Virus record (IMG/VR): IMGVR_UViG_3300032204_000004
Strand: one strand, 5' to 3'
Length of the DNA: 46,966 nt
Origin: a virus
The notes under the pieces were generated by a model that saw only the letters and a list, made by a program, of their open reading frames with translations, was not told the origin of the DNA and did not search any database. Made by a program: the position numbers and the translations under genes. Positions 203 through 31,254 of this stretch are shown in pieces (the first letter of the stretch is position 1; each line of letters opens with the position of its first letter).

Positions 203-724
203 ATGGCTCGATGGAAATTAGCCTGCGCTCACTATCTCAATCTTACCGATTCGGCCAAGTGGGAATATTCGGAGGTTGATCGTCAAACTGGTCGGCCGAA
301 GAAGCGCGTGTTCAACGTCCCTACGCTTCTTGATCCGCAAGACCCTGCTTCGTGGAATAACGTCGTTGGCCGTGATGATGGAGAGATCATTGTCACCAAT
401 GATCCGAACTCGGATAACCGGGATTACATTTTCATTGGCAAACCCACCCCAGACATGATCCCGCTGGATGATGAAGCCAAGAAGCAATCGTCCGAACTGG
501 CAACCTATGTGCCGAACCAAGAAGGCCAGAACGGCGATGCGCTGATCCAGTCCTTCCAAGCTGAGATGGAAAAAATCCGCGAGACGCAATCGCAGCCGCA
601 GAAGATCGAAGGCGTTAGCGAACTGCTGACTGCTATCACGCAAATGATGGCGCAGAACCAGCAGATGATGACAGCTATGATTGGTGATAAAAGTGCTGCT
701 AAAAGTGAAGGACGCAGAGTCTAA
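203..724 (+). CDS. hypothetical virion-module protein
   Basis: ATG follows AGGAG (193..197). 173-aa ORF. Its stop overlaps the next start (TAATG). Confidence 0.7.
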   Translation: MARWKLACAHYLNLTDSAKWEYSEVDRQTGRPKKRVFNVPTLLDPQDPASWNNVVGRDDGEIIVTNDPNSDNRDYIFIGKPTPDMIPLDDEAKKQSSELATYVPNQEGQNGDALIQSFQAEMEKIRETQSQPQKIEGVSELLTAITQMMAQNQQMMTAMIGDKSAAKSEGRRV

Positions 725-1231: not shown

Positions 1232-1720
1232 ATGGCACAATACTCCTTCAATAACACCAATGCGGGAACGCAGCAGAATCTGTCGTCCTCGTTTAAGACT
1301 ATCAACCTTGTTACCGCTGCGACTGGTGCAACCACCCTTCGCCGTGGCTGGATTTACGAACTCGAGGTCGGTGCTGACAACGTCCCGAACGCAACGGATT
1401 GCCCAATCAATTGGGACATCTCGTCGCAGACGGCAGCGGGCACCATCACCTCCAACACCCCAAACCCAATCGATCAGGGTGGCGGTGATGCTGCAGCGCT
1501 TTTGACCTATGGTTCAAACGCAACGGCCGAAGGTACGATCACAGCCAACTCGTCGGTATTCTACCTTCCACTGAACCAGCGCGCTACGCAACGCTGGATC
1601 GCTCGTGATCAATCTTCGTGCTTGATTGTTGCGGCGGTCAACCTTAAGGGATTTGCACTCCGCGCAAAATCTCCGAACTACGCCTCGACGGTTGGCGCAA
1701 CCATGTTTGTTCAGGAATAA
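1232..1720 (+). CDS. hypothetical beta-rich protein, paralog-like to 46072..46692
   Basis: Track ORF 1181..1720 trimmed to ATG 1232, which follows GAAAGG. The C-terminus (SSCLIVAAVNL...ATMFVQE) parallels QQICINLNAV...NMFWTEQ. Confidence 0.7.
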   Translation: MAQYSFNNTNAGTQQNLSSSFKTINLVTAATGATTLRRGWIYELEVGADNVPNATDCPINWDISSQTAAGTITSNTPNPIDQGGGDAAALLTYGSNATAEGTITANSSVFYLPLNQRATQRWIARDQSSCLIVAAVNLKGFALRAKSPNYASTVGATMFVQE

Positions 1721-1729
1721 GGAGCTACT

Positions 1730-2011
1730 ATGACTGTCACTCTTGAAACTCGCCAACAGGCTTATGACAAGGCCAAGAAAGCGTATGATGATGCAGTAGC
1801 GGCAAATAAGAAGCTGCCGCGTTCACAGCGCGCACCGCTGCCTGATCTTCCAGAGCCTCTGGTTATCCCAGCCGATGGCATTGCGTCGAAAGACGTAAAC
1901 GCTACTGATGTTCGTGCCGTTGATTCGGACACTGGCATCTCTAGCGGTTGGAGCAAGTCCGAAGCAGAAGCCAAGGATGCGCTTTCGAGCGCAATTCTGG
2001 ACGCTCAGTAA
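1730..2011 (+). CDS. hypothetical protein
   Basis: AAGGAG lies 6 nt upstream of the ATG. 93 aa. Its stop overlaps the next start. Confidence 0.65.
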   Translation: MTVTLETRQQAYDKAKKAYDDAVAANKKLPRSQRAPLPDLPEPLVIPADGIASKDVNATDVRAVDSDTGISSGWSKSEAEAKDALSSAILDAQ

Positions 2012-2310
2012 TGCTACGGGCCGAAGGCTATAGCATCATCACTTCCCCCGGTGAACGTGACAAAGAACACGACACGTTCACCTGTGCCCATTGTAACGCA
2101 ATCACCTTCACCAAATCGGGGCTCAACGGCCCGTTAGAGGTGGCTGTGATTAAGGTCGATGGGTCGGTTGAGATGAAACCTGCCGCCTTTTGCCGCAACT
2201 GTTTCCGTCACATCTGCCCTAGGTGTGACGGAAAGGATTGTGTTCCGCTTATGAAGAAAATCGAATGCGAGGAAGTTCAATCTCGCAAGCTGCTCATGCC
2301 TTGGGAATGA
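2011..2310 (+). CDS. Cys-rich (zinc-ribbon-like) small protein
   Basis: Track ORF 1948..2310 trimmed to ATG 2011 (TAATG overlap). Contains CAHC ... CRNCFRHICPRC ... C motifs. Confidence 0.6.
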   Translation: MLRAEGYSIITSPGERDKEHDTFTCAHCNAITFTKSGLNGPLEVAVIKVDGSVEMKPAAFCRNCFRHICPRCDGKDCVPLMKKIECEEVQSRKLLMPWE

Positions 2311-2311
2311 G

Positions 2312-3079
2312 ATGTTCGGAAACGATCAATTTACCACTACCCTACTTCACTGTGATGGGGCTAATGGTGGTACAACCTTTACTGACAATTGTGCGGGCGT
2401 AGCGGCTCACAGCTGGTCGCGTGTTGGTACGCAATCCACAACGGACACGTCTCAATTTGTATTCGGCACAGCATCACTTCGGGCTGCGACAGCCAATGCA
2501 CAGATTGCGACAGGATACATAAATACAGCTTCTAGTACTGATTTTGACGTAGGTTCGGGAGATGCTACTTGGGACTATTGGATTCAGTTTAACGGAACCG
2601 GTGATGCCGGTACTAATGGTATTAGCTTTTTTCAGAAATGGGGTGTAGTAGGCCAACGCTCATTTAGTCTTGCATTTTTCAGTGGCAATTATCAGTTCAA
2701 CTGGACCACTGATGGAAGCACAACCAAGACGACATCTTACGCAGCCTCTACTCCCTCAACAGGTCAATGGTATCATCACGCTTGGGTGCGAACTGCTGGG
2801 GCGGTCAAGTTTTATCTAAACGGCACATCACTAACCTCAGCTGGAACTGCGATTAGCACAGATGTAATCTTTGCTAGCACTACTGCCTTAGGCTTTGGCG
2901 GAGGTGCAGGTGGCGGTTGGGCTTCGACTAATGGTTGGCTTGATGAAGGCCGCTTGTCAAAAGGCACCGCCCGATGGACCGCAAACTTCACCACACCAAA
3001 TGAACCCTATGACGTTCCCGTATTCCAACGTCCTTGGTGGTGGGATTATGATACCGGTGTACAGCAGGTGTCATATTGA
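2312..3079 (+). CDS. LamG / concanavalin A-like lectin domain protein (candidate receptor-binding protein)
   Basis: The pattern HCDG..TTFTD, DATWDYWIQF, QWYHHAWVR, VKFYLNG, WLDEGRLSKG is typical of Laminin_G_3 jelly-roll proteins. Confidence 0.6.
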   Translation: MFGNDQFTTTLLHCDGANGGTTFTDNCAGVAAHSWSRVGTQSTTDTSQFVFGTASLRAATANAQIATGYINTASSTDFDVGSGDATWDYWIQFNGTGDAGTNGISFFQKWGVVGQRSFSLAFFSGNYQFNWTTDGSTTKTTSYAASTPSTGQWYHHAWVRTAGAVKFYLNGTSLTSAGTAISTDVIFASTTALGFGGGAGGGWASTNGWLDEGRLSKGTARWTANFTTPNEPYDVPVFQRPWWWDYDTGVQQVSY

Positions 3080-3852
3080 AACAGATACAGCATCAGACTA
3101 GCCTCACCACGCTACCAGTACCTACGGCAGCGACGAATACCAACGCCGGTATTCCGTGGATGGTTGCGTGGACGCCACCGTTCTTCCCGAAGAAGATGCC
3201 ATCGCAGTTGATGCAGACTGAGATGGAGGTGTTGACACCTGATACATTACCTGCTGGTATCTCTGGTATTGCTTGGATGAAAGGTTGGGAGCCGCCATAC
3301 TTCCCGTTGCGCGTTAAGCCTGAGCTAATGCAATCGGAAATGGAAGTGTTAACTCCTGACACACTTCCAGTTCCAAATTCTGGTCTTTCTTGGTGGCGCC
3401 CATTCGATCAACCTGACCAGCGCAAGGTTCCAGTTCAGCTAATCCCAACCGAAGCTAAAACACTCTACCCCGGATCGTTGCCTCCTCCTATTTCTGGACA
3501 CGCTTGGAACCGTAAGTGGGAGGATCCATATTTCCCAAAACGGGTGAAGATTGAGTTGATGCAAACTCAAGCCTTCCCAACACCTCCATCGACGCTCCCA
3601 ACCAAAATCGCTGGTATGGCTTGGCGTGTTGCGTGGGAGCTACCGACATATAAATGCTACGATCAATTTGGCCTTCAATTCAACTTCCGGGTTAACTTCA
3701 TCCCATCCAACGTTCCATCGGCTTGGTGGTACGCACCATTCGATCAACCGAAACAGGTTAAGGTGCCTGTTGAATTACAAATGACTACGGTGCAAACTCT
3801 ACGTCCATATCCATACCAATTCGCGCGTGGATATATCATAGGACCAGCTTAA
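3076..3852 (+). CDS. tandem-repeat protein (5-6 copies of a ~39-aa W/P-rich unit)
   Basis: TTG start overlaps the previous stop (TTGA) and follows AGGTG. Repeat units: G(I/L)(A/S/P)W..(A/G/K)W(E/T)PP(Y/F)FP...(E/Q)LMQ(T/S)EMEVLTPDTLP. Confidence 0.7.
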   Translation: MKQIQHQTSLTTLPVPTAATNTNAGIPWMVAWTPPFFPKKMPSQLMQTEMEVLTPDTLPAGISGIAWMKGWEPPYFPLRVKPELMQSEMEVLTPDTLPVPNSGLSWWRPFDQPDQRKVPVQLIPTEAKTLYPGSLPPPISGHAWNRKWEDPYFPKRVKIELMQTQAFPTPPSTLPTKIAGMAWRVAWELPTYKCYDQFGLQFNFRVNFIPSNVPSAWWYAPFDQPKQVKVPVELQMTTVQTLRPYPYQFARGYIIGPA

Positions 3853-4434: not shown

Positions 4435-4644
4435 ATGGACTATGAACAAGTAAAAGCTTTGCTCTATATCTGGGCAAATACCTCTGGGCATCCGCCGCTC
4501 AAGTATATCAACGCGGCTGCCATTGCTGAGTTGAAAGAAATCAATGACTCGTTCGCGCCAAAGAATTCGGCAACTCAGGCAATCCCGTCGGCAACTGAAA
4601 CAACTGATGAAACGGATGACGACGAAGGAGATGATAATGAGTAA
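4435..4644 (+). CDS. hypothetical small protein with acidic C-terminal tail
   Basis: AAGGA upstream. 69 aa, ending TDETDDDEGDDNE. Confidence 0.55.
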   Translation: MDYEQVKALLYIWANTSGHPPLKYINAAAIAELKEINDSFAPKNSATQAIPSATETTDETDDDEGDDNE

Positions 4645-4831
4645 CGATATCCTCAGCGAATACGGCAACGATAGCGGTCCGGGTCAAGGTCCGCGCGCAA
4701 CCAATGGTGGATGCCCAGAGGTTAAACCGCTGGCCTATTCTCCTCCAAAAGGTCCAACGGGCCAGATGCAGGAAGGACCCGGAATTCACGGTACCAACCA
4801 CGGAAATTGTGGAACACAAGGACGCCGCTAA
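4637..4831 (+). CDS. hypothetical Gly/Pro-rich small protein
   Basis: Track ORF 4544..4831 trimmed to ATG 4637, which lies 6 nt after GAAGGAG (4624..4630). Confidence 0.5.
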   Translation: MSNDILSEYGNDSGPGQGPRATNGGCPEVKPLAYSPPKGPTGQMQEGPGIHGTNHGNCGTQGRR

Positions 4832-5926
4832 ATGACCACCCCAACAGACATTGTCAATCGAGCGCTACAGGCGATCGGCACTCGTACAACAGTGACTGAT
4901 GCGGAACTAGCGGGCAATCTCACCAACGAAGCCATTCAAGCAAATCTTATCATGAATACCCTTCGTGATGATTTGCTTCGAATGGCTCCTTGGGATTGCG
5001 CCCTTAAGGTAGCGAATATCACCTATATCACCTCTGCGCCGGGAACGCCAGAGAACTCTTCTCCACAAACCCAACTTTGGCAACCGGGTCAGCCCGCACC
5101 TCCTTGGGCTTATGAATATCAATACCCCGTTGATTGCCTCCGCGCTTGTTGGATCATTCCCACCAACCAACTTGGGTATGGCACCGGAGTGCCTATCACA
5201 ACCGCTGTAACGGGCGCCGCCACGAGTTTTTGGCAAGGGCCGCCGGTGCGGTTCAAAGTTCAAACCGACCAGTTCTACCCTGTTACGGCTGCGGCTGTGG
5301 CTAATGGCGGCTCGGGATATAACGTTGGTGATATCTGGACTGGTGCCCGCGGTATTAGCGGCAACCCACCAATCGGCGCTCCGGTTCAGCTTCTAGTCAC
5401 GTCCGTTGGCGGCGGTGGCGTTATCACTGGCGTTACGGTTGTCAACGTGATTATGGACGCCACTATTACCGGAGGCGGTTCATACTTTGCGCGTCAAGCT
5501 AACCCCGTAGCGCAGGGATCGACATCTAGAAACGGCTCTGGCGCAACCTTCAACCTGACCTTCGGCGCGGCACAAATTAGCCAGCGCGTTATTCTCACCA
5601 ATCAAGAATTTGCTACGCTAACGTACATTCAACAAGTTAGCGATCCGAATGTGATGGACAAGCTATTCCAAACAGCTTGGTACAAAATCCTTGGCGCATC
5701 ACTTTCCCGCACATTCACCGGAGATAAAAAACTCGCGAACGATCTTATCGAGGAAGCTAACGGCACAATTACCGAAGCGCGTTCGATTGACGCAAACGAG
5801 GGTTATACCGTTAATGATGTAACGCCTGACTGGATTCGGGCGCGGGGCCTAAACTACACCGAAGGCTATACCAGCGGTCCATACACTGGCTATGATTGGG
5901 GCGGTCTCTGGCCGTTGTACCTCTAA
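4832..5926 (+). CDS. tail tubular protein A / head-tail adaptor-like protein
   Basis: The N-terminus (IVNRALQAIGTRTTV...NEAIQANL..LRDDLLRMAPWDCA) follows the T7 gp11-type pattern VN.IL..IGE..V....A....L....R....W.F. Lies directly upstream of the large nozzle-like gene. Confidence 0.45.
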   Translation: MTTPTDIVNRALQAIGTRTTVTDAELAGNLTNEAIQANLIMNTLRDDLLRMAPWDCALKVANITYITSAPGTPENSSPQTQLWQPGQPAPPWAYEYQYPVDCLRACWIIPTNQLGYGTGVPITTAVTGAATSFWQGPPVRFKVQTDQFYPVTAAAVANGGSGYNVGDIWTGARGISGNPPIGAPVQLLVTSVGGGGVITGVTVVNVIMDATITGGGSYFARQANPVAQGSTSRNGSGATFNLTFGAAQISQRVILTNQEFATLTYIQQVSDPNVMDKLFQTAWYKILGASLSRTFTGDKKLANDLIEEANGTITEARSIDANEGYTVNDVTPDWIRARGLNYTEGYTSGPYTGYDWGGLWPLYL

Positions 5927-22533: not shown

Positions 22534-22788
22534 TCAATGTAACTTAGAACATTGTGGACAAGTAACATCATTACCATTCCTCCGCCACCCTATTTCCGCA
22601 AACATTTTTGGTGCCATTTCTTCTATTAAAATTCTTATAGCATTGTCTACATTTCCAGCATCATAAGCAATACCTACCATTCCTTGATCCTTGTGCAAAA
22701 CACACCAGTCACTTTGTGATTTACATATACAACATTTATATGCAACCATAGCTATATGTGGAGGTTTCGGTTTACCAATAACCCACAT
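22534..22788 (-). CDS. AT-rich Cys-rich mini-ORF splitting the polymerase gene
   Basis: 84 aa with CCIC...CPQC. TAATG overlap with the upstream ORF. Its stop lies 2 nt before the polymerase ATG. Composition is visibly AT-rich compared with both flanks. Confidence 0.6.
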   Translation of the reverse strand: MWVIGKPKPPHIAMVAYKCCICKSQSDWCVLHKDQGMVGIAYDAGNVDNAIRILIEEMAPKMFAEIGWRRNGNDVTCPQCSKLH

Positions 22789-23891
22789 TACGAATCCCTC
22801 TTAATCGTATCAGCTTCTTTCCGCATATGTTTCCAACTTCCATGATCAGTATACACCGATCCCAGATAACCTAATCCTTTGAGACTTTCCGGCTGCCTTG
22901 CGTGGTGGAGGAGCATCGTATCCTCCGCCGCCCCAAGCGTCCGAATTCCGTACGAACGGTAGAGGAATTGGATGTCGTAGACTCCGTTTTGGAACAACTT
23001 GCGGATTGATGCATCCTCAAGAACTCCACGGATAATTTGCCAACACTCATATTCAAGCTCTGAAGTAGGCCAATAACTTCCTCCCGGCTTTCGGGAGTCA
23101 TCGAACGGTATAACGATTGCAAGGTCTCCTCGGACGCCGAAGCCAATACATGTAACCCTTGTTCCAGATGTTTCGATGTCAACAGACAATAGCCCTTCTG
23201 GAGCCACAAAGCGGCCCATGAAGTCTCGAATATCGTCAAGGGTTGGTTCGATCCAGATTTCACAGTTCGGCCTCCTTATTTCCTGAAACGCTGATTCTCG
23301 CTTGGCTTTGACTAAATCCATTATGGTCGTGGGTCGAAGCTCCCATTGTCGAAGCACAGCAGAAGGGTGGTAAGTAGGCAGAAGCTTAAAGCCACCAACA
23401 GTGTGTGTAGAGAGGAGCGTCGTGCCTCGTAGTTTAGTGACTCCACTTTTGCCAGTAAGCGCCCAGAGAGCAGTATTGCCCAGAGCAATGATGAGATTTG
23501 GATCGTGGTCAACAATTTCGTCCCCTAAGCGATCGAGTTCGGATTGGTATTGGGCGAGGAGGTATTTGCCTTTGATGAGTGCAGGGTATCCGGCTACGCC
23601 TTCACGGCTGCCGCCACAGATATTGTTGAGATCGTTGGCGTGGGGGTGGAATTGGAAAACGTTGGTACGGAAAACGGTTGCGGAATGATTGTGCCAGACT
23701 TCGTCAACGGCTGTTGCGTCACCGTTGTTGTAGAACCTCGAAATGAGTGCGCGATCTTCGATTGTGAGGCTGATAATCTTGGCTTCGTCAAGCTGGCGCA
23801 AAAGCTCAATGCCAGAAGGCCCGACAAAACAAGAATTAATTTTTTGTTCATTTGCACCTTTTGCCTCCCCCACGATAACTATAGGTGTCAT
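22788..23891 (-). CDS. DNA polymerase N-terminal part: UDG-like domain + 3'-5' exonuclease motifs Exo I and Exo II
   Basis: UDG family 4-type motifs: GEAKGANEQ...CFVGPSG, FRTNVFQFHP, TYHPSAVLR. Exonuclease motifs: VDIET (Exo I), FQNGVYD (Exo II) and EDTML. Confidence 0.8.
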   Translation of the reverse strand: MTPIVIVGEAKGANEQKINSCFVGPSGIELLRQLDEAKIISLTIEDRALISRFYNNGDATAVDEVWHNHSATVFRTNVFQFHPHANDLNNICGGSREGVAGYPALIKGKYLLAQYQSELDRLGDEIVDHDPNLIIALGNTALWALTGKSGVTKLRGTTLLSTHTVGGFKLLPTYHPSAVLRQWELRPTTIMDLVKAKRESAFQEIRRPNCEIWIEPTLDDIRDFMGRFVAPEGLLSVDIETSGTRVTCIGFGVRGDLAIVIPFDDSRKPGGSYWPTSELEYECWQIIRGVLEDASIRKLFQNGVYDIQFLYRSYGIRTLGAAEDTMLLHHARQPESLKGLGYLGSVYTDHGSWKHMRKEADTIKRDS

Positions 23892-24328
23892 ATCATTCTT
23901 CCCAGATTGTCACGTTCTCTTTTACTAGCATGTTCCGAGGTATGGCAATATGAACATAAAATTTCTAAATTTTCAGGAATGTTGTTTGTTCTATCTTGAT
24001 CCTTATGATGTATGTGATGATTCATATCTTGTCGAACAAATCCACATCTTTCACAAATATGTAAATTACGATTCAAGGATTTCATTAGTGCTTGGTTATG
24101 TCGTCTTATAGTACGTTTTGATAATCCTGTAACATGAGCATTCTTATTGCCATATTGGGCACCTTGTTTCCATCCAATTATATTACAGGAAGCAGCAAAA
24201 ACTCTAATTGTTGATACGTGACATGAAAGATAATCAGCTATTTCATGTTGATTCATATCAAGATCGCGTAGAGCCATAATAGCTTCTTTTCTTTGATCAA
24301 AGCCTAGCTGCTTCCAGTATAGTTTCAT
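23859..24328 (-). mobile_element. HNH homing-endonuclease cassette (HNH ORF plus recoded copy of the target 5' end)
   Basis: AT-rich block. It lies between the leftover copy at 24325..24360 and the recoded copy at 23859..23891. Confidence 0.6.
23888..24328 (-). CDS. HNH homing endonuclease with N-terminal HTH
   Basis: Track ORF trimmed to ATG 24328. HNH motif: CERCG...HHIHHKDQDRTNN..ENLEILCSYCHTSEH. ATGA overlap with the downstream polymerase gene. Confidence 0.8.
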   Translation of the reverse strand: MKLYWKQLGFDQRKEAIMALRDLDMNQHEIADYLSCHVSTIRVFAASCNIIGWKQGAQYGNKNAHVTGLSKRTIRRHNQALMKSLNRNLHICERCGFVRQDMNHHIHHKDQDRTNNIPENLEILCSYCHTSEHASKRERDNLGRMI

Positions 24329-24360
24329 TTGGCCTCGCCGATTATGACGATGGGTGTCAC
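24325..24360 (-). pseudogene. leftover original 5' end of the UDG-exonuclease gene (mini-ORF VTPIVIIGEAK-stop)
   Basis: GTG ACA CCC ATC GTC ATA ATC GGC GAG GCC AAA TGA duplicates MTPIVIVGEAK at 23859..23891. GTGA overlap with the upstream gene. Its stop overlaps the HNH ATG. Confidence 0.65.
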
Positions 24361-24614
24361 TTACACTTTTCCTCAACGAGGACAGCATAGCCACGCACAT
24401 CTTCCCAATGCTGCTTCGAGAGGGACTTGCCGGAGAGGATACGCGAGAACTTGAGAGCAATCATATCCATCGCCTCGCGTTCGATATACGACAGTCGATG
24501 CCAGCCTACAGCGGACTGGAAAACGGTTTTGATCCGCTGGGAGAGTTGAGCATTCTCCTCAAACGATCCGTGGGTGGTTTCACGTTCAGCGAGGAGCGGG
24601 TCGCGTTCGGTCAT
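24357..24614 (-). CDS. small all-alpha protein, MazG-like / DUF6378-like
   Basis: The HGSFEENAQ...EREAMDMIALKFSRIL...WEDVRGYAVL pattern recalls phage nucleotide pyrophosphohydrolase N-terminal domains. Call is from memory only. Confidence 0.4.
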   Translation of the reverse strand: MTERDPLLAERETTHGSFEENAQLSQRIKTVFQSAVGWHRLSYIEREAMDMIALKFSRILSGKSLSKQHWEDVRGYAVLVEEKCK

Positions 24615-25128: not shown

Positions 25129-25401
25129 TTAGGTTTCCGGGTTGGTTGCTGGTTCGTATGTAGCCTCAAAAATGTCAGGTTTACATGGGTAAACTTCTCC
25201 CTTTACTCCTTTGATAATCCAATCTCCAGCATCAGCTTTCATGATACCTTCGAGAGTTTCGATAAACATATTTGGAAAGTTGATAGTAACCTTTCCGTGT
25301 TCTATCAAATCAACAATCCACTCTGGGTCCTCGATTTGATATACATCACCTGACCATTTGAAAGCTTCAATGGTTATAGGCTTTTTGCGATAGTATCCCA
25401 T
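25129..25401 (-). CDS. hypothetical small protein (AT-rich gene)
   Basis: 90-aa ORF with GDWIIKGVKGEVYPCKPDIFEATYE, a motif common in small phage proteins. Confidence 0.6.
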   Translation of the reverse strand: MGYYRKKPITIEAFKWSGDVYQIEDPEWIVDLIEHGKVTINFPNMFIETLEGIMKADAGDWIIKGVKGEVYPCKPDIFEATYEPATNPET

Positions 25402-26255: not shown

Positions 26256-26431
26256 TCAGTTTCCAATTCTACGATTAAGTTAACACGATCAAATAGGGTG
26301 GCGGAATCGATAGGGAGTTTGAGTTGGACACCTAAGAGTTGAACGGCGAGATTGCCTTCGTTGTCGTAGGTCCAAGGGAGATTGAGGCAGATGTATCTTG
26401 TTTTATTCAACGCGGACGAAGCGGATTCCAT
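26207..26431 (-). CDS. possible small ORF filling the exonuclease/ATPase gap
   Basis: Only ORF spanning the 150-nt gap 26256..26406. It overlaps both neighbours (25 and 49 nt) and has no clear RBS. Confidence 0.25.
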   Translation of the reverse strand: MESASSALNKTRYICLNLPWTYDNEGNLAVQLLGVQLKLPIDSATLFDRVNLIVELETECPPSPNTNPTNSQNF

Positions 26432-27348
26432 CTGTCCTCCGGAGCTAGCTTGATAAAGTCCGCCTCAAGGAACCGTTCGCGAACAGATGGGTCTTTGGAG
26501 CAGACGCCACGAAAACGACAGCCACCAAACTTGTCACAAGCGGTGTCGTTCATTGGCCAATATCCCACTGTAGCATAGTTCTCAGCGGATGTCAACCAGA
26601 ACTTGAGATCGTCGAGCCATTCGTGTGTTTGGGCAGGTGTGCGGAAGGTGAAGCCTCGGACGTAGTTGTTGGGCTTTTCGAGCAGGACTTGCGCGGCGTC
26701 GATTACGACACCTTTGACTACAGTGTTGAGAACGATCTGGCCCGCGAGGGTGTAGAGGGACATTTGGTTGTTTGGACTATACTGGTCGAAGTAGTATGAT
26801 CCAGGCGTGGTTGTGGTCGTCTTGCGATCCATGACGAGGGTTTCGCCATTGAAGTCAACCACACGGTCGAGATGGCCGCTTAGGAGGAATGGTTGGTTGG
26901 TTCCGCTTTGAGGTCCAAATGGAAGTTCAAAACGGAAGCTCACCTCAGTCGCGGCCTTCCCACTCTCCAACACCTTTGTCTGTGCGGGGTCGTCCTTATA
27001 CCGATCGAGATAATCAATCACCAATGAAAGAAGGGTCCGTGGGTTTTTATACGCACCAGCGCGGCTAGTAATATCAGGGTCCCAATCGTGGATACGAATA
27101 AGAAGGTCTCGAACCGCGTCCAATAGCGCGTCATCATGCTTTTTGCCAGCCAATTTGTGAGCATCGTATTCCTCAAGGGCTTTGTGATATTCAATCCCGA
27201 AACGGAGGTGAACGGAGTCGTCCTTTGGAGCCCAGCCTTCGATCATTATATAGTAATACAGTTTTGGGCACGTCTTGAGATAGCCCAAGCTGGTACTATC
27301 AAAAGCGTATTGTATATTAGTTCCCGGAAGAAATGGTGAAATTACCAC
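26407..27348 (-). CDS. Cas4-like PD-(D/E)XK exonuclease with 4-Cys cluster
   Basis: LKTCP (first Cys), HLDRV, LVMDRKT (DxK), QMSLYT (QxxxY), CDKFGGCRFRGVC. The start is uncertain: GTG 27348 matches the duplicated native N-terminus, and the track gives GTG 27429. Confidence 0.75.
   Translation of the reverse strand: MVISPFLPGTNIQYAFDSTSLGYLKTCPKLYYYIMIEGWAPKDDSVHLRFGIEYHKALEEYDAHKLAGKKHDDALLDAVRDLLIRIHDWDPDITSRAGAYKNPRTLLSLVIDYLDRYKDDPAQTKVLESGKAATEVSFRFELPFGPQSGTNQPFLLSGHLDRVVDFNGETLVMDRKTTTTTPGSYYFDQYSPNNQMSLYTLAGQIVLNTVVKGVVIDAAQVLLEKPNNYVRGFTFRTPAQTHEWLDDLKFWLTSAENYATVGYWPMNDTACDKFGGCRFRGVCSKDPSVRERFLEADFIKLAPEDRWNPLRPR
26567..26595 (-). promoter_or_regulatory. candidate internal sigma70-type promoter
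   Basis: Minus strand TTGACA-17 nt-TACAGT, located inside the exonuclease gene. Confidence 0.3.
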
Positions 27349-27796
27349 CGAGGTAACTTGATCCTTTTTCGCTGATATAATTCCAGACTGTGTTTCCAGA
27401 GAGATGGAGTCTTTTGGCGATTTCGTCACGGCTTAATCCTTGTTCATATAATGGTTTAATTCGTTTCCAAGTCTCTTGCCTTCGCCTTTCACCAACCAAA
27501 GGATCGTCTATTTTTCGTCCTTTAGATATCATGTCATTTGTATTATCTTGAGCAGTTCCTAAGAATAAATGATTGACATTTATACAAGCTCTATTATCAC
27601 ATTTATGTAGTACCATTTGATTTTGATCGTGTTCTGGATTTGATGCAAAATATACTATTCGATGCGCACGTTGTTTTACCTCACGACCAAAACTAATTGG
27701 GATATATCCTTTGGCATTTGGCCTCAGATGACTTACGAGACAGCCGTTTATATTAATGGAATTAGCTACAAGCCAATCAGCCTTTTGCTTAACCCA
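27304..27796 (-). mobile_element. HNH homing-endonuclease cassette (HNH body plus recoded copy of the exonuclease 5' end)
   Basis: AT-rich block lying between the resident copy (27797..27844) and the recoded copy (27304..27348) of the same peptide. Confidence 0.6.
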
Positions 27797-27844
27797 TGCG
27801 TATTGGATGTTGGTGTTGAGGAGGAACGGGGAAAGGACGGTCAT
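27317..27844 (-). CDS. HNH (HNH_3-type) homing endonuclease fused to the first 16 codons of the exonuclease gene; C-terminal HTH
   Basis: GGAGG lies 5 nt upstream of ATG 27844. HNH motif: AHRIVY...LHKCDNRACINVNHLFLGTAQDN. HTH: LSRDEIAKRLHLSGNTVWNYI. Confidence 0.8.
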   Translation of the reverse strand: MTVLSPFLLNTNIQYAWVKQKADWLVANSININGCLVSHLRPNAKGYIPISFGREVKQRAHRIVYFASNPEHDQNQMVLHKCDNRACINVNHLFLGTAQDNTNDMISKGRKIDDPLVGERRRQETWKRIKPLYEQGLSRDEIAKRLHLSGNTVWNYISEKGSSYLGGNFTISSGN

Positions 27845-28062
27845 CAAATCCTCCGTTTTACATCTGGACCCGCGACCTTCAAGCCAAGGGCCGTCAAATC
27901 AAGCTTGGTCTTTGGCCCCGCATCCTTTTTCGCCTTACCACCATTTTCGCGATAGGCGCGCTGATTGCGGTAGTAGGCGATGACGACTTTGAGATCGAGA
28001 TCGGTCATGGAGAGTGGGTCTTTGGACATGACTGTGTCAATGTCGTTGGGTTCATCGGTCAT
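27844..28062 (-). CDS. hypothetical protein
   Basis: Track ORF trimmed to ATG 28062 (ATGA overlap with the upstream gene). 72 aa. Confidence 0.55.
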   Translation of the reverse strand: MTDEPNDIDTVMSKDPLSMTDLDLKVVIAYYRNQRAYRENGGKAKKDAGPKTKLDLTALGLKVAGPDVKRRI

Positions 28063-30816: not shown

Positions 30817-31254
30817 TTAGATTCTCCGTTTGAGTTCGCCGCTAAGGGCATGGTGTTTACGCTCAACCGTTATCCCGATTGATTGGAGAAGGTTGAGGCC
30901 AGAATTGCGTTCTGCCTTCCGCTCGATTGCCGATGGTGCAACGGTGATGGACCAGAAATCTTGGAGGTCTTTGGGCATGGGCTTTGCCCTATCGGTGACG
31001 AATACGAAATCGTCGGAGGATAGGAAGTAGCCCAATTCGCATAATGGGTAGTCCCAAAAAGGGTAGGCCCGATGCCCGGTGGAGGGAAGTATCCACCAAA
31101 CTTCGCCGTCTTGGTTCATCTGCTCGGCAATGTCGAAGGCGAGGGCTCCGCGGACCTTGTGTGCGATTAGGTAGAGGTTGGCTACCCCAGATGGATTTGA
31201 ACCATCGCTAGCAGAGTCAAAGTCTACTGTGCTATCCGCTACACTATGGGGCAT
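30817..31254 (-). CDS. hypothetical protein
   Basis: TAATG coupling. 145 aa. Confidence 0.6.
   Translation of the reverse strand: MPHSVADSTVDFDSASDGSNPSGVANLYLIAHKVRGALAFDIAEQMNQDGEVWWILPSTGHRAYPFWDYPLCELGYFLSSDDFVFVTDRAKPMPKDLQDFWSITVAPSAIERKAERNSGLNLLQSIGITVERKHHALSGELKRRI

Follow-up and report, generated by a model that had tools for sequence, protein, structure and literature searches.

How can a nuclease gene lie within the coding sequence of an essential phage replication gene when neither an intron nor an intein carries it? This question is raised by the IMG/VR virus record IMGVR_UViG_3300032204_000004, a stretch of 46,966 nucleotides (nt) referred to here as the window. In the window, an HNH endonuclease gene, HNH1, is found at the 5' end of a gene encoding a UDG-like domain and a 3'-5' exonuclease domain, which corresponds to the N-terminal portion of a family-A DNA polymerase that is naturally split. 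An earlier note on this DNA had reported that the first 11 codons of the polymerase gene occur on both sides of HNH1 and had read this as a homing strategy based on a duplicated and recoded target. The analysis described here indicates that HNH1 is probably a free-standing homing endonuclease gene (HEG) whose mobile unit replaces the start of the polymerase gene, with the resident start left behind as a mini open reading frame (mini-ORF).

All features of the locus lie on the minus strand (Table 1), where each sequence statement of the earlier note was re-checked; the mini-ORF, the GTGA and ATGA overlaps, and the coordinates of HNH1 and of the polymerase gene proved exact to the base. The upstream DUF6378 gene ends in ...TGT AAG TGA, and its stop codon TGA (24359..24357) overlaps the GTG of the mini-ORF at 24360 (GTGA). 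The HNH1 ATG at 24328 is embedded in AAATGA, taking its A from the last sense codon of the mini-ORF and its TG from the mini-ORF stop. HNH1 is therefore threaded between two overlaps, as its own stop TGA (23890..23888) overlaps the polymerase ATG at 23891 (ATGA). The polymerase gene then opens with ATG ACA CCT ATA GTT ATC GTG GGG GAG GCA AAA (23891..23859), encoding MTPIVIVGEAK. The leftover and this new copy are identical at 24 of 33 nt and 10 of 11 amino acids (aa), and the nine nt differences comprise seven synonymous third-position changes, the start codon (GTG/ATG) and one first-position change (I to V), in line with the mostly wobble-type differences noted before. The HNH1 ORF makes up 441 of the 469 nt that separate the two starts, so that 28 nt of the insert lie outside it, and it is out of frame with the leftover, from which it is parted by stop codons. 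A chance origin of the 11-codon match is excluded. When all six frames of the 47-kb window were scanned, the sole other peptide pair with at least 9/10 identity within 1 kb was a DNA repeat at about 3208-3370, and the shuffling check that had been proposed gave a best match of 7/10 in 5000 shuffles of the 1 kb upstream, against the 9/10 observed. Two independent assemblies are 100% identical to the window, one over both junctions (L022) and one that begins within the mini-ORF and covers the right junction (L021), indicating that the arrangement is real and not an assembly artefact.

Relatives lacking the insert reveal which of the two copies is the original one. Twenty syntenic IMG/VR loci were compared, in which the polymerase N-terminal gene is 58-76% identical to that of the window; 18 of them reach the junction. 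HNH1 is absent from all 20, and synteny is otherwise identical. In all 18 junction-reaching relatives, the polymerase gene starts with [GAT]TGAC.CC in a 4-nt overlap with the upstream stop codon and no insert is present, and in 11 of these 18 the gene directly upstream is a DUF6378 homologue. This start has exactly the position that the mini-ORF holds relative to the upstream stop. Therefore, the mini-ORF is the ancestral polymerase start with its first 11 codons, kept in its original translational-coupling position, and HNH1 is an insertion, both as the earlier note had supposed. The ancestral Shine-Dalgarno (SD) sequence for this start, GAGGA, is located in the last codons of the DUF6378 gene. 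On average, the leftover matches the relatives at 19.8 of 30 nt and the new copy at 18.5 of 30; the leftover is the nearer copy for 13 of the 18 relatives, with two ties, which is a small effect on 30 nt among relatives that are not independent. At third positions, the leftover matches at 4.0 of 10 and the new copy at 2.2 of 10. The locus is thus polymorphic for the presence of the HEG, with 18 syntenic relatives without it and nine other genomes with it. The HEG distribution on the polymerase tree is patchy, as the window carries its HEG within a crown clade of HEG-free genomes and the other HEG-carrying genomes are found on deeper branches. Among GenBank phages no nucleotide match was found, and the best protein match was 39.5% identical (Caulobacter phage Kuura), so no insert-free allele is available there.

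The insert is also set apart by its composition. HNH1 has a GC content of 0.34, with 0.20 at third codon positions (GC3), and GC values of 0.29-0.37 across HNH1 compare with about 0.5-0.57 in the flanks. The polymerase gene shows a GC3 of 0.23 over codons 1-22 and 0.51 afterwards, with the change-point after codon 22 at a modest log-likelihood ratio (LLR) of 3.4; the 5' ends of other genes in the neighbourhood have GC3 values of 0.46-0.75, and none resembles these 22 codons. The leftover has native composition. These values agree with the AT-richness of HNH1 and of the early polymerase codons described in the earlier note, and they identify the downstream copy as a foreign replacement, similar in composition to HNH1. 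Probably, the roughly 22 codons rich in A and T at third positions (AT3-rich) arrived together with HNH1. The synonymous excess and the composition together argue for two alleles, each a functional gene while it diverged in a genome of its own, and against a duplication that decayed in situ.

A homing signature is found in the genome that carries the nearest relative of HNH1 (L189, 51% identity), for which a HEG-free genome that is near-isogenic around the site (L006) is available. In an anchored, ungapped alignment of the left flank, the two are 80-97% identical over the last 125 nt of DUF6378. Within the polymerase gene, nt 136-384 are 92% identical and nt 1-135 only 70%, with the differences mostly at synonymous sites. 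This low-identity tract of about 45 codons adjoins a precise ATGA-to-ATGA insertion and is what homing predicts as a co-conversion tract; in the window, the corresponding signature is compositional only. L189 has two further HNH_3 genes in its replication module (217..714 and 1758..2192), which follow the PD-(D/E)XK gene in one case and the AAA_24 gene in the other, and this module is saturated with HEGs.

HNH1 joins a nuclease domain to a DNA-binding domain, as free-standing HEGs do. It has an N-terminal helix-turn-helix (HTH) and a C-terminal HNH motif of the form CxxC...HH..D..N..CxxH..H; the PF01844 match is above the Pfam curated cut-off, and the HTH_38/HTH_23 matches of the N-terminus are below it. 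An exhaustive phmmer search yielded 39 HNH1-family proteins at E<=1e-10, all of about 145 aa and of the same architecture, and the catalytic and zinc residues (CxxC/HH/D/N/CxxH/H) are invariant in 29 family members. For the HNH protein of L103, the identity by tblastn is 36%. An IMG/VR pattern scan with HNH1 alone gave no match, and a word-indexed protein search returned the identical protein only. The N-terminal DNA-binding region (positions 7-73 of HNH1-family profile A2) matches PDB chain 8vd6_A ('CAP REPEAT') at E=1.2e-13; HNH1 by itself gives no significant match in the PDB.

Genomic context is available for ten family members (the window, L023, L103, L183, the P0037 contig/L185, L186, L187, L189, L190 and L191). 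All ten are situated directly in front of a polymerase gene of the UDG type, whose start is overlapped by the HNH 3' end. The downstream gene was verified by Pfam, tblastn or alignment in six of them; in the other four the contig ends early and the assignment is by the N-terminal motif only. Within this phage group, the HNH1 family is thus specialised on one target, the start of the polymerase gene with its UDG-like and exonuclease domains.

The members of the family differ in how much of the resident gene is left in front of them. The leftover measures 0-1 codon in L185, L189, L190 and L191, three codons in L023 and L103, possibly about four in L186, and 10-11 in L187, L183 and the window, and in none of the ten contexts does it exceed 11 codons. 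In L189 and L190, nothing is shared beyond the ATGA in which the upstream stop and the HNH ATG overlap, while in L185 and L191 the HNH gene has its own start. In L023, DNA of native composition stops at GGAGGaaaaaATGACCCCG (M-T-P), after which comes a 20-codon mini-ORF with its stop 2 nt before the HNH GTG. In L103, the HNH ORF opens with ATG ACT CGC and the polymerase gene with ATG ACT CGT. Two of the long leftovers are fused in frame to the HNH gene: MPKPLVLLSEA in L183 and MKPIFLVGEA in L187, where the new copy, KPIFLVGEA, differs at 5 of 27 nt, all synonymous. All three long leftovers end directly after GGCGAAGC, which is the most conserved DNA stretch of the HEG-free alleles and encodes the GEA motif of the UDG-like domain. 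The limit of 10-11 codons and this shared end suggest that the HNH1 family may cut just 3' of GGCGAAGC.

Two interpretations in the earlier note hold in part. The target had been called recoded, and the copies do differ; selection for immunity does not follow, as the differences are those expected of a diverged donor allele and the new copies of L183 and L187 keep GGCGAAGC as GGC GAA GCT. Immunity through a change from GGC to GGR in the glycine codon of the GEA motif looked promising with three HEG alleles and was ruled out by these two genomes. The leftover had been described as part of a strategy, and it does recur (L183 and L187, and in shorter form L023 and L103), but the simplest state of the family, seen in L189 and L190, is a clean insertion at the stop/start overlap without any leftover. 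For this reason, the leftover is at least as likely to be a repair scar. The start of HNH1 in the window (24316..24328, minus strand), ATGAAAC-TATAC, resembles the 'K-type' polymerase start ATGAAACCTATC (L187 699..711, and L016) if a 1-nt deletion is allowed; the resemblance is statistically weak, but it may reflect an earlier leftover, since eroded, that was brought along from a previous host and is nested in the current one.

A comparable arrangement is found elsewhere in the window, where HNH2 lies at the start of a PD-(D/E)XK nuclease gene. HNH1 and HNH2 are unrelated (BLASTP E=0.34) and have opposite domain orders, HTH-PF01844 and PF13392-HTH, respectively, which agrees with their earlier assignment to different subfamilies. 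Codons 1-17 of HNH2 (27844..27794, MTVLSPFLLNTNIQYAW) are the original start of the resident PD-(D/E)XK gene, fused in frame to HNH2, and the ATG of this resident start shares one base with the stop of an upstream 81-aa gene. The break is placed after codon 17 by the N-termini of PD-(D/E)XK relatives, ..VLSPFLPGT.IQYAW/DSTSLGY (the slash marks the break). The PD-(D/E)XK gene restarts at the GTG at 27348 (VISPFLPGTNIQYAF...; VISPFLPGTNIQYAFDSTSLGY), in a 32-nt overlap with the 3' end of HNH2. Its first 18 or so codons are AT3-rich (GC3 0.17, then 0.58; LLR 6.1), and codons 2-25 of the HNH2 ORF, which are mostly leftover, have a GC3 of 0.71 against 0.26 in the HNH2 body. The parallel drawn in the earlier note between the two insertions therefore stands, with the small correction that the HNH2 leftover has 17 codons and is an in-frame fusion without a separate mini-ORF. 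A family-level site association was not obtained for HNH2, whose sole detectable relative, L188, is in an unrelated context.

The geometry is also more general, as had been suggested, and occurs in unrelated phages and genes. In a flank-duplication test, the product of the gene that follows each HNH gene was scored over its first 25 residues against the translated 700 nt upstream, with the reversed peptide as the null; null maxima were 35 for viral loci and 38 for metagenome loci, and the two window cases scored 47 and 56 (HNH2/PD-(D/E)XK, 56). Two further cases, L044 and L024, emerged from 80 viral HNH loci. In L044, a 40-aa leftover, MEFNKIIQGECSEVMSTFPDECISLTVTS.., breaks exactly at the SPPY motif of a methyltransferase (TS/PPY) and is followed by an HTH-HNH gene with its own SD and then by a complete N6_N4 methyltransferase gene, whose new start lies within the 3' end of the HNH gene. 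No close HEG-free relatives of this methyltransferase were found (<=59% identity), and the family N-terminal consensus was used instead. In L024, a GC3-rich leftover, VASTPASRKARG, is fused in frame to the HNH gene, and next comes a PDDEXK_15 gene with an AT3-rich replacement start. The 80 metagenome loci, of which 54 were testable, yielded L104, a twin of L024. A further high-scoring locus, L154 (score 56), was rejected as a 5'-end duplication, since its repeat is a tRNA fragment beside a tRNA-Leu gene and not a protein 5' end. At this locus (2590..3528), the HNH gene has the tRNA-Leu downstream (3456..3528) and the tRNA-like fragment upstream (at about 2657, translating as WVRFPP), which could represent the same geometry with a tRNA gene in place of a protein gene. 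In L209 (about 1500..1620), an otherwise different methyltransferase starts with MIDQYVNKIIQGN, near-identical to the L044 replacement start MIDQYVNKVIHGN (3197..3260), which hints at a possible donor lineage of the L044 replacement 5' end.

A mechanism that could give rise to these arrangements can be outlined. The mobile unit probably consists of the HNH gene and the donor-derived first 20-45 or so polymerase codons, with the new start codon packed against or inside the HNH 3' end, and in its basic state the family is a free-standing HEG that occupies precisely the overlap between the upstream stop and the polymerase start. In HEG-free genomes, the cut would probably fall a short way into the polymerase gene, in the conserved DNA that encodes GEA. 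Where donor and recipient have the same upstream gene, repair would give the clean product of L189 with its co-converted 5' tract. The upstream gene varies in this phage group, and DUF6378 is 45-74% identical between genomes. With poor homology on the left, the right end alone would recombine homologously and the left end would be joined illegitimately at or near the break, leaving the start of the recipient and up to about 11 codons behind. In the window, homologous recombination near codon 22 of the polymerase gene probably made the right join. The left join follows resident codon 11 and was probably made right at the double-strand break, with CAAA as the microhomology. The window junction, GCC AAA/TGA AAC, matches an L189-type donor (GAC AAA TGA) at CAAA, which fits microhomology-mediated joining. 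The HEG-free junction as reconstructed would read from the DUF6378 3' end through GTGACACCCATCGTCATAATCGGCGAGGCCAAAGG into the downstream polymerase sequence, although the window has lost the native codons 12-22, for which close relatives would have to serve as the model. Survivors would be those products that keep both the HNH gene and the polymerase gene translatable, and this could explain why every leftover is either an in-frame fusion or a mini-ORF ending at the HNH start. Because the whole gene is rebuilt downstream, an element without an intron or intein can sit in essential coding sequence.

Translation would probably follow a chain of stop/start overlaps, from DUF6378 (GTGA) to the mini-ORF (ATGA), HNH1 (ATGA) and the polymerase. 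No coding-strand promoter was found within the insert, and the HNH1 ATG is preceded by no more than a short-spaced GAGG, which makes termination-reinitiation along GTGA, ATGA and ATGA plausible, and with it the threading of HNH1 into the coupling chain. A bolder extension, which must be regarded as rather doubtful, is that leftovers are break-point fossils, the longest in each HEG family marking the cut site, and that the overlap chain makes translation of the essential gene depend on the HEG, a form of 'addiction'. If true, the cut sites and target motifs of uncharacterised phage HEGs would be readable directly from metagenomes, and translational addiction would protect the selfish gene from inactivation.

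Several points weigh against a replaced polymerase start in the form proposed. HNH enzymes often cut away from their insertion site, and the end of a leftover need not be the cut site. Immunity of the new copies is not explicable by changes in the GGCGAAGC motif alone, given the GGC GAA GCT retained in L183 and L187. The donor tract of about 22 codons in the window is delimited by composition (LLR 3.4), since no HEG-free relative more than 90% identical in nt to the window phage was found. The CAAA microhomology is only 4 nt long. GAGG, with a 4-nt spacer, may serve the HNH1 ATG as a separate SD, so that coupling to the mini-ORF may be unneeded. Finally, for every member of the family, cleavage, homing and translation are deduced from the DNA.

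Other explanations have to be weighed against the same observations. The leftover might be an adaptive module that captures the ribosome-loading signals of the host gene, making polymerase translation dependent on the HEG; it might even be a portable left homology arm that lets the cassette home into genomes with different upstream genes. All five leftover-bearing members indeed keep translational continuity from the ancestral start into the HNH gene, through fusions (L183, L187, L103) or mini-ORFs ending at or 2 nt before the HNH start (the window, L023), HNH2 and L024 are likewise in-frame fusions, and the lack of a coding-strand promoter in the insert points the same way. Each leftover is also nearer to the new copy of its own genome than to the leftovers of other genomes, as reported for the homR segment of MobA. 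Yet four members (L185, L189, L190 and L191) do without a leftover, L187 retains its own SD and ATG inside the fusion, the L044 HNH gene has its own SD, 33 nt make a short homology arm, and survivorship bias enters because only intact HNH ORFs were retrieved; an adaptive leftover is therefore considered unlikely, though it deserves to be kept in mind. That HNH1 is a domesticated accessory of the replication module, a regulator or processing nuclease co-expressed with the polymerase, would account for the position directly upstream of the polymerase gene in ten divergent phages, the intact ORFs and the invariant catalytic residues. It is improbable in view of the absence of HNH1 from 18 syntenic relatives, including the nearest to the window, its foreign composition, the insertion footprints in the form of leftover starts and a co-conversion tract, and the other HEG types (GIY-YIG, HNH_3) that litter the same module in relatives.

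Two similar copies flanking HNH1 would also be expected if the 5' end had been duplicated in tandem in situ and had drifted, with the HNH gene landing later between the copies. Under neutral decay, however, seven synonymous changes among nine differences have a binomial P of about 0.008, the downstream copy shares the AT-rich composition of HNH1 while the upstream copy is native, and the same pattern recurs in L024 and L187, so that such a history is very improbable. HNH genes of phage polymerase genes are often intron-borne, as with I-HmuI of SPO1, which brings to mind a self-splicing group I intron, or else an intein or a chimeric assembly. A group I intron was rejected, as no Rfam family matches there at gathering score or E<=1 and the HNH1 ORF leaves only 28 nt of the insert outside it. 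An intein was likewise rejected, as the Pfam matches at E<=0.01 are to HNH and HTH families only and HNH1 is not an in-frame insertion but is separated from the leftover by stop codons. A chimera conflicts with the two identical independent assemblies, and this group of explanations can practically be dismissed. A free-standing HEG that replaces the polymerase start remains the likely reading.

Table 1. Features of the two HNH loci in the window (coordinates are positions in the 46,966-nt window).
Feature	Position	Strand	Basis or sequence
Upstream gene, DUF6378, 85 aa	24614..24357	-	Pfam DUF6378 E=3.1e-5
Leftover mini-ORF, VTPIVIIGEAK-stop	24360..24325	-	GTG ACA CCC ATC GTC ATA ATC GGC GAG GCC AAA TGA
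HNH1, probable free-standing homing endonuclease gene, 146 aa	23888..24328	-	Pfam PF01844 E=1.3e-7
Probable replacement polymerase 5' end, new ATG and about 22 AT3-rich codons	23826..23891	-	GC3 change-point; duplicate of the leftover at 23859..23891
Target gene, UDG-like and 3'-5' exonuclease, 367 aa	22788..23891	-	Pfam UDG E=1.6e-12, DNA_pol_A_exo1 E=9e-6
HNH2, HNH_3 (PF13392) followed by C-terminal HTH	27317..27847	-	Pfam
PD-(D/E)XK nuclease gene with replacement start	26407..27348	-	Pfam PDDEXK_1 E=9e-16

Further features of the window were observed in passing. Between the exonuclease and polA genes lies an AT-rich 84-aa CxxC...CxxC ORF (22534..22788, minus strand; GC 0.36, GC3 0.22), which has stop/start overlaps with both neighbours and no Pfam match and is absent from 20 of 20 relatives. 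In relatives, the exonuclease-polA gap ranges from 0 to about 450 nt; L023 has a GIY-YIG-like ORF there (4506..4943), the P0037 contig has an HNH_3 gene, and the gap looks like a second mobile-gene hotspot inside the split polymerase. An AT-rich 90-aa ORF (25129..25401, minus strand; GC 0.40) between g284 (AAA_24-like) and g167 is absent from all relatives. On the plus strand, tandem protein repeats of about 117 nt (39 aa), ..ELMQ[TS]EMEVLTPDTLP..GI.W...W.PP.FP.., occupy 3145..3600 in an ORF ending at 3852 and dominate duplication scans. A single tRNA gene (31182..31253, minus strand; RF00005, 59 bits) is the sole Rfam match in the window.

With a replacement gene start, a selfish nuclease gene has a third route, next to introns and inteins, into essential phage coding sequence. 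For the HNH1 family, it comes with a concrete prediction of the cut site, just 3' of GGCGAAGC. It also has a computational signature, an upstream copy of the first codons of the downstream gene, which brought to light the extra cases in 2 of 80 viral HNH loci and the metagenome twin. Annotation artefacts such as orphan mini-ORFs, HNH ORFs with an extended N-terminus, and polymerase, nuclease or methyltransferase genes whose start is mis-called are explained in this way, and chimeric 5' ends can mislead phylogenies.

Among known systems, MobA of T4-type phages is the closest in several respects. Here, an HNH HEG lies inside the topoisomerase ORF together with the gene 60 bypass cassette (Bonocora et al. 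2011 PNAS; bioRxiv 10.1101/2022.08.31.505936). Like HNH1, MobA is a free-standing HNH HEG within the ORF of an essential replication gene, without an intron or intein. It carries homR, a divergent copy of a host segment (67-81% nt identity), and a new start for the downstream ORF, as is the case here, and this new start overlaps the HNH ORF out of frame by 8-32 nt. MobA insertions are recent, patchy and repeated at one site, and homR resembles the local parental gene. Unlike the window element, MobA splits its gene mid-way into two functional polypeptides, deletes the parental segment and needs a 50-nt ribosomal bypass for immunity. In the HNH1 family, by contrast, the insertion is 1-11 codons from the start, the protein is encoded in full after the insert, what remains in front of it is a leftover or mini-ORF without function, and no bypass is involved.

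Similar principles are known from the mobile ORFs (mORFs) of fungal mitochondria, which have been described for atp6 in Allomyces (Paquin et al. 1994), for atp6, atp9, cox2 and nad3 in Glomus (PMC3630166) and for atp6 and cob in Endoconidiophora (PMC6279837). In these, an endonuclease ORF near the end of a gene is accompanied by a foreign copy of that end, which displaces the native one and turns it into a leftover. As in the window, it is the native copy that is nearer to relatives, the inserted copy having diverged mostly at synonymous sites. The mORFs differ in that they replace the 3' end, encode LAGLIDADG or GIY-YIG enzymes, are mitochondrial and involve no start codon or translational coupling. 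A diverged host-segment copy that becomes part of the expressed gene, as in MobA and the mORFs, is present in the window and also in L187, L183, L044, L024 and at HNH2. The displaced native leftover is nearer to relatives than the inserted copy, as in the mORFs (13 of 18 relatives, two ties). Neither the mid-gene split with bypass of MobA nor the mitochondrial 3'-end replacement of the mORFs is found in the window. The window element thus works like MobA and the mORFs but is a member of neither.

The T-even Seg and Mob genes (SegF, SegG) and the genes-in-pieces case nrdA/mobE of Aeh1 are free-standing HEGs beside or in conserved genes that cleave the neighbouring gene and co-convert flanking markers, in keeping with established knowledge and the introduction of a recent phage-HEG survey (PMC10448857). 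The clean L189-type insertion with its co-conversion tract corresponds exactly to intronless homing of this type. Unlike the window, where the left junction is within coding sequence, these systems have no described duplicated and displaced gene start, and displaced starts are not mentioned in the searched passages of the survey. A keyword search of open-access text gave no phage precedent for a 5'-end duplication by a HEG, which is a weak negative. That a HEG brings along a replacement piece of its host gene is an established principle. What appears to be new is that the replacement affects the 5' end and captures the start of the host gene, that this recurs in phage genes unrelated to one another, and that the series of leftover lengths is a putative read-out of the cut site.

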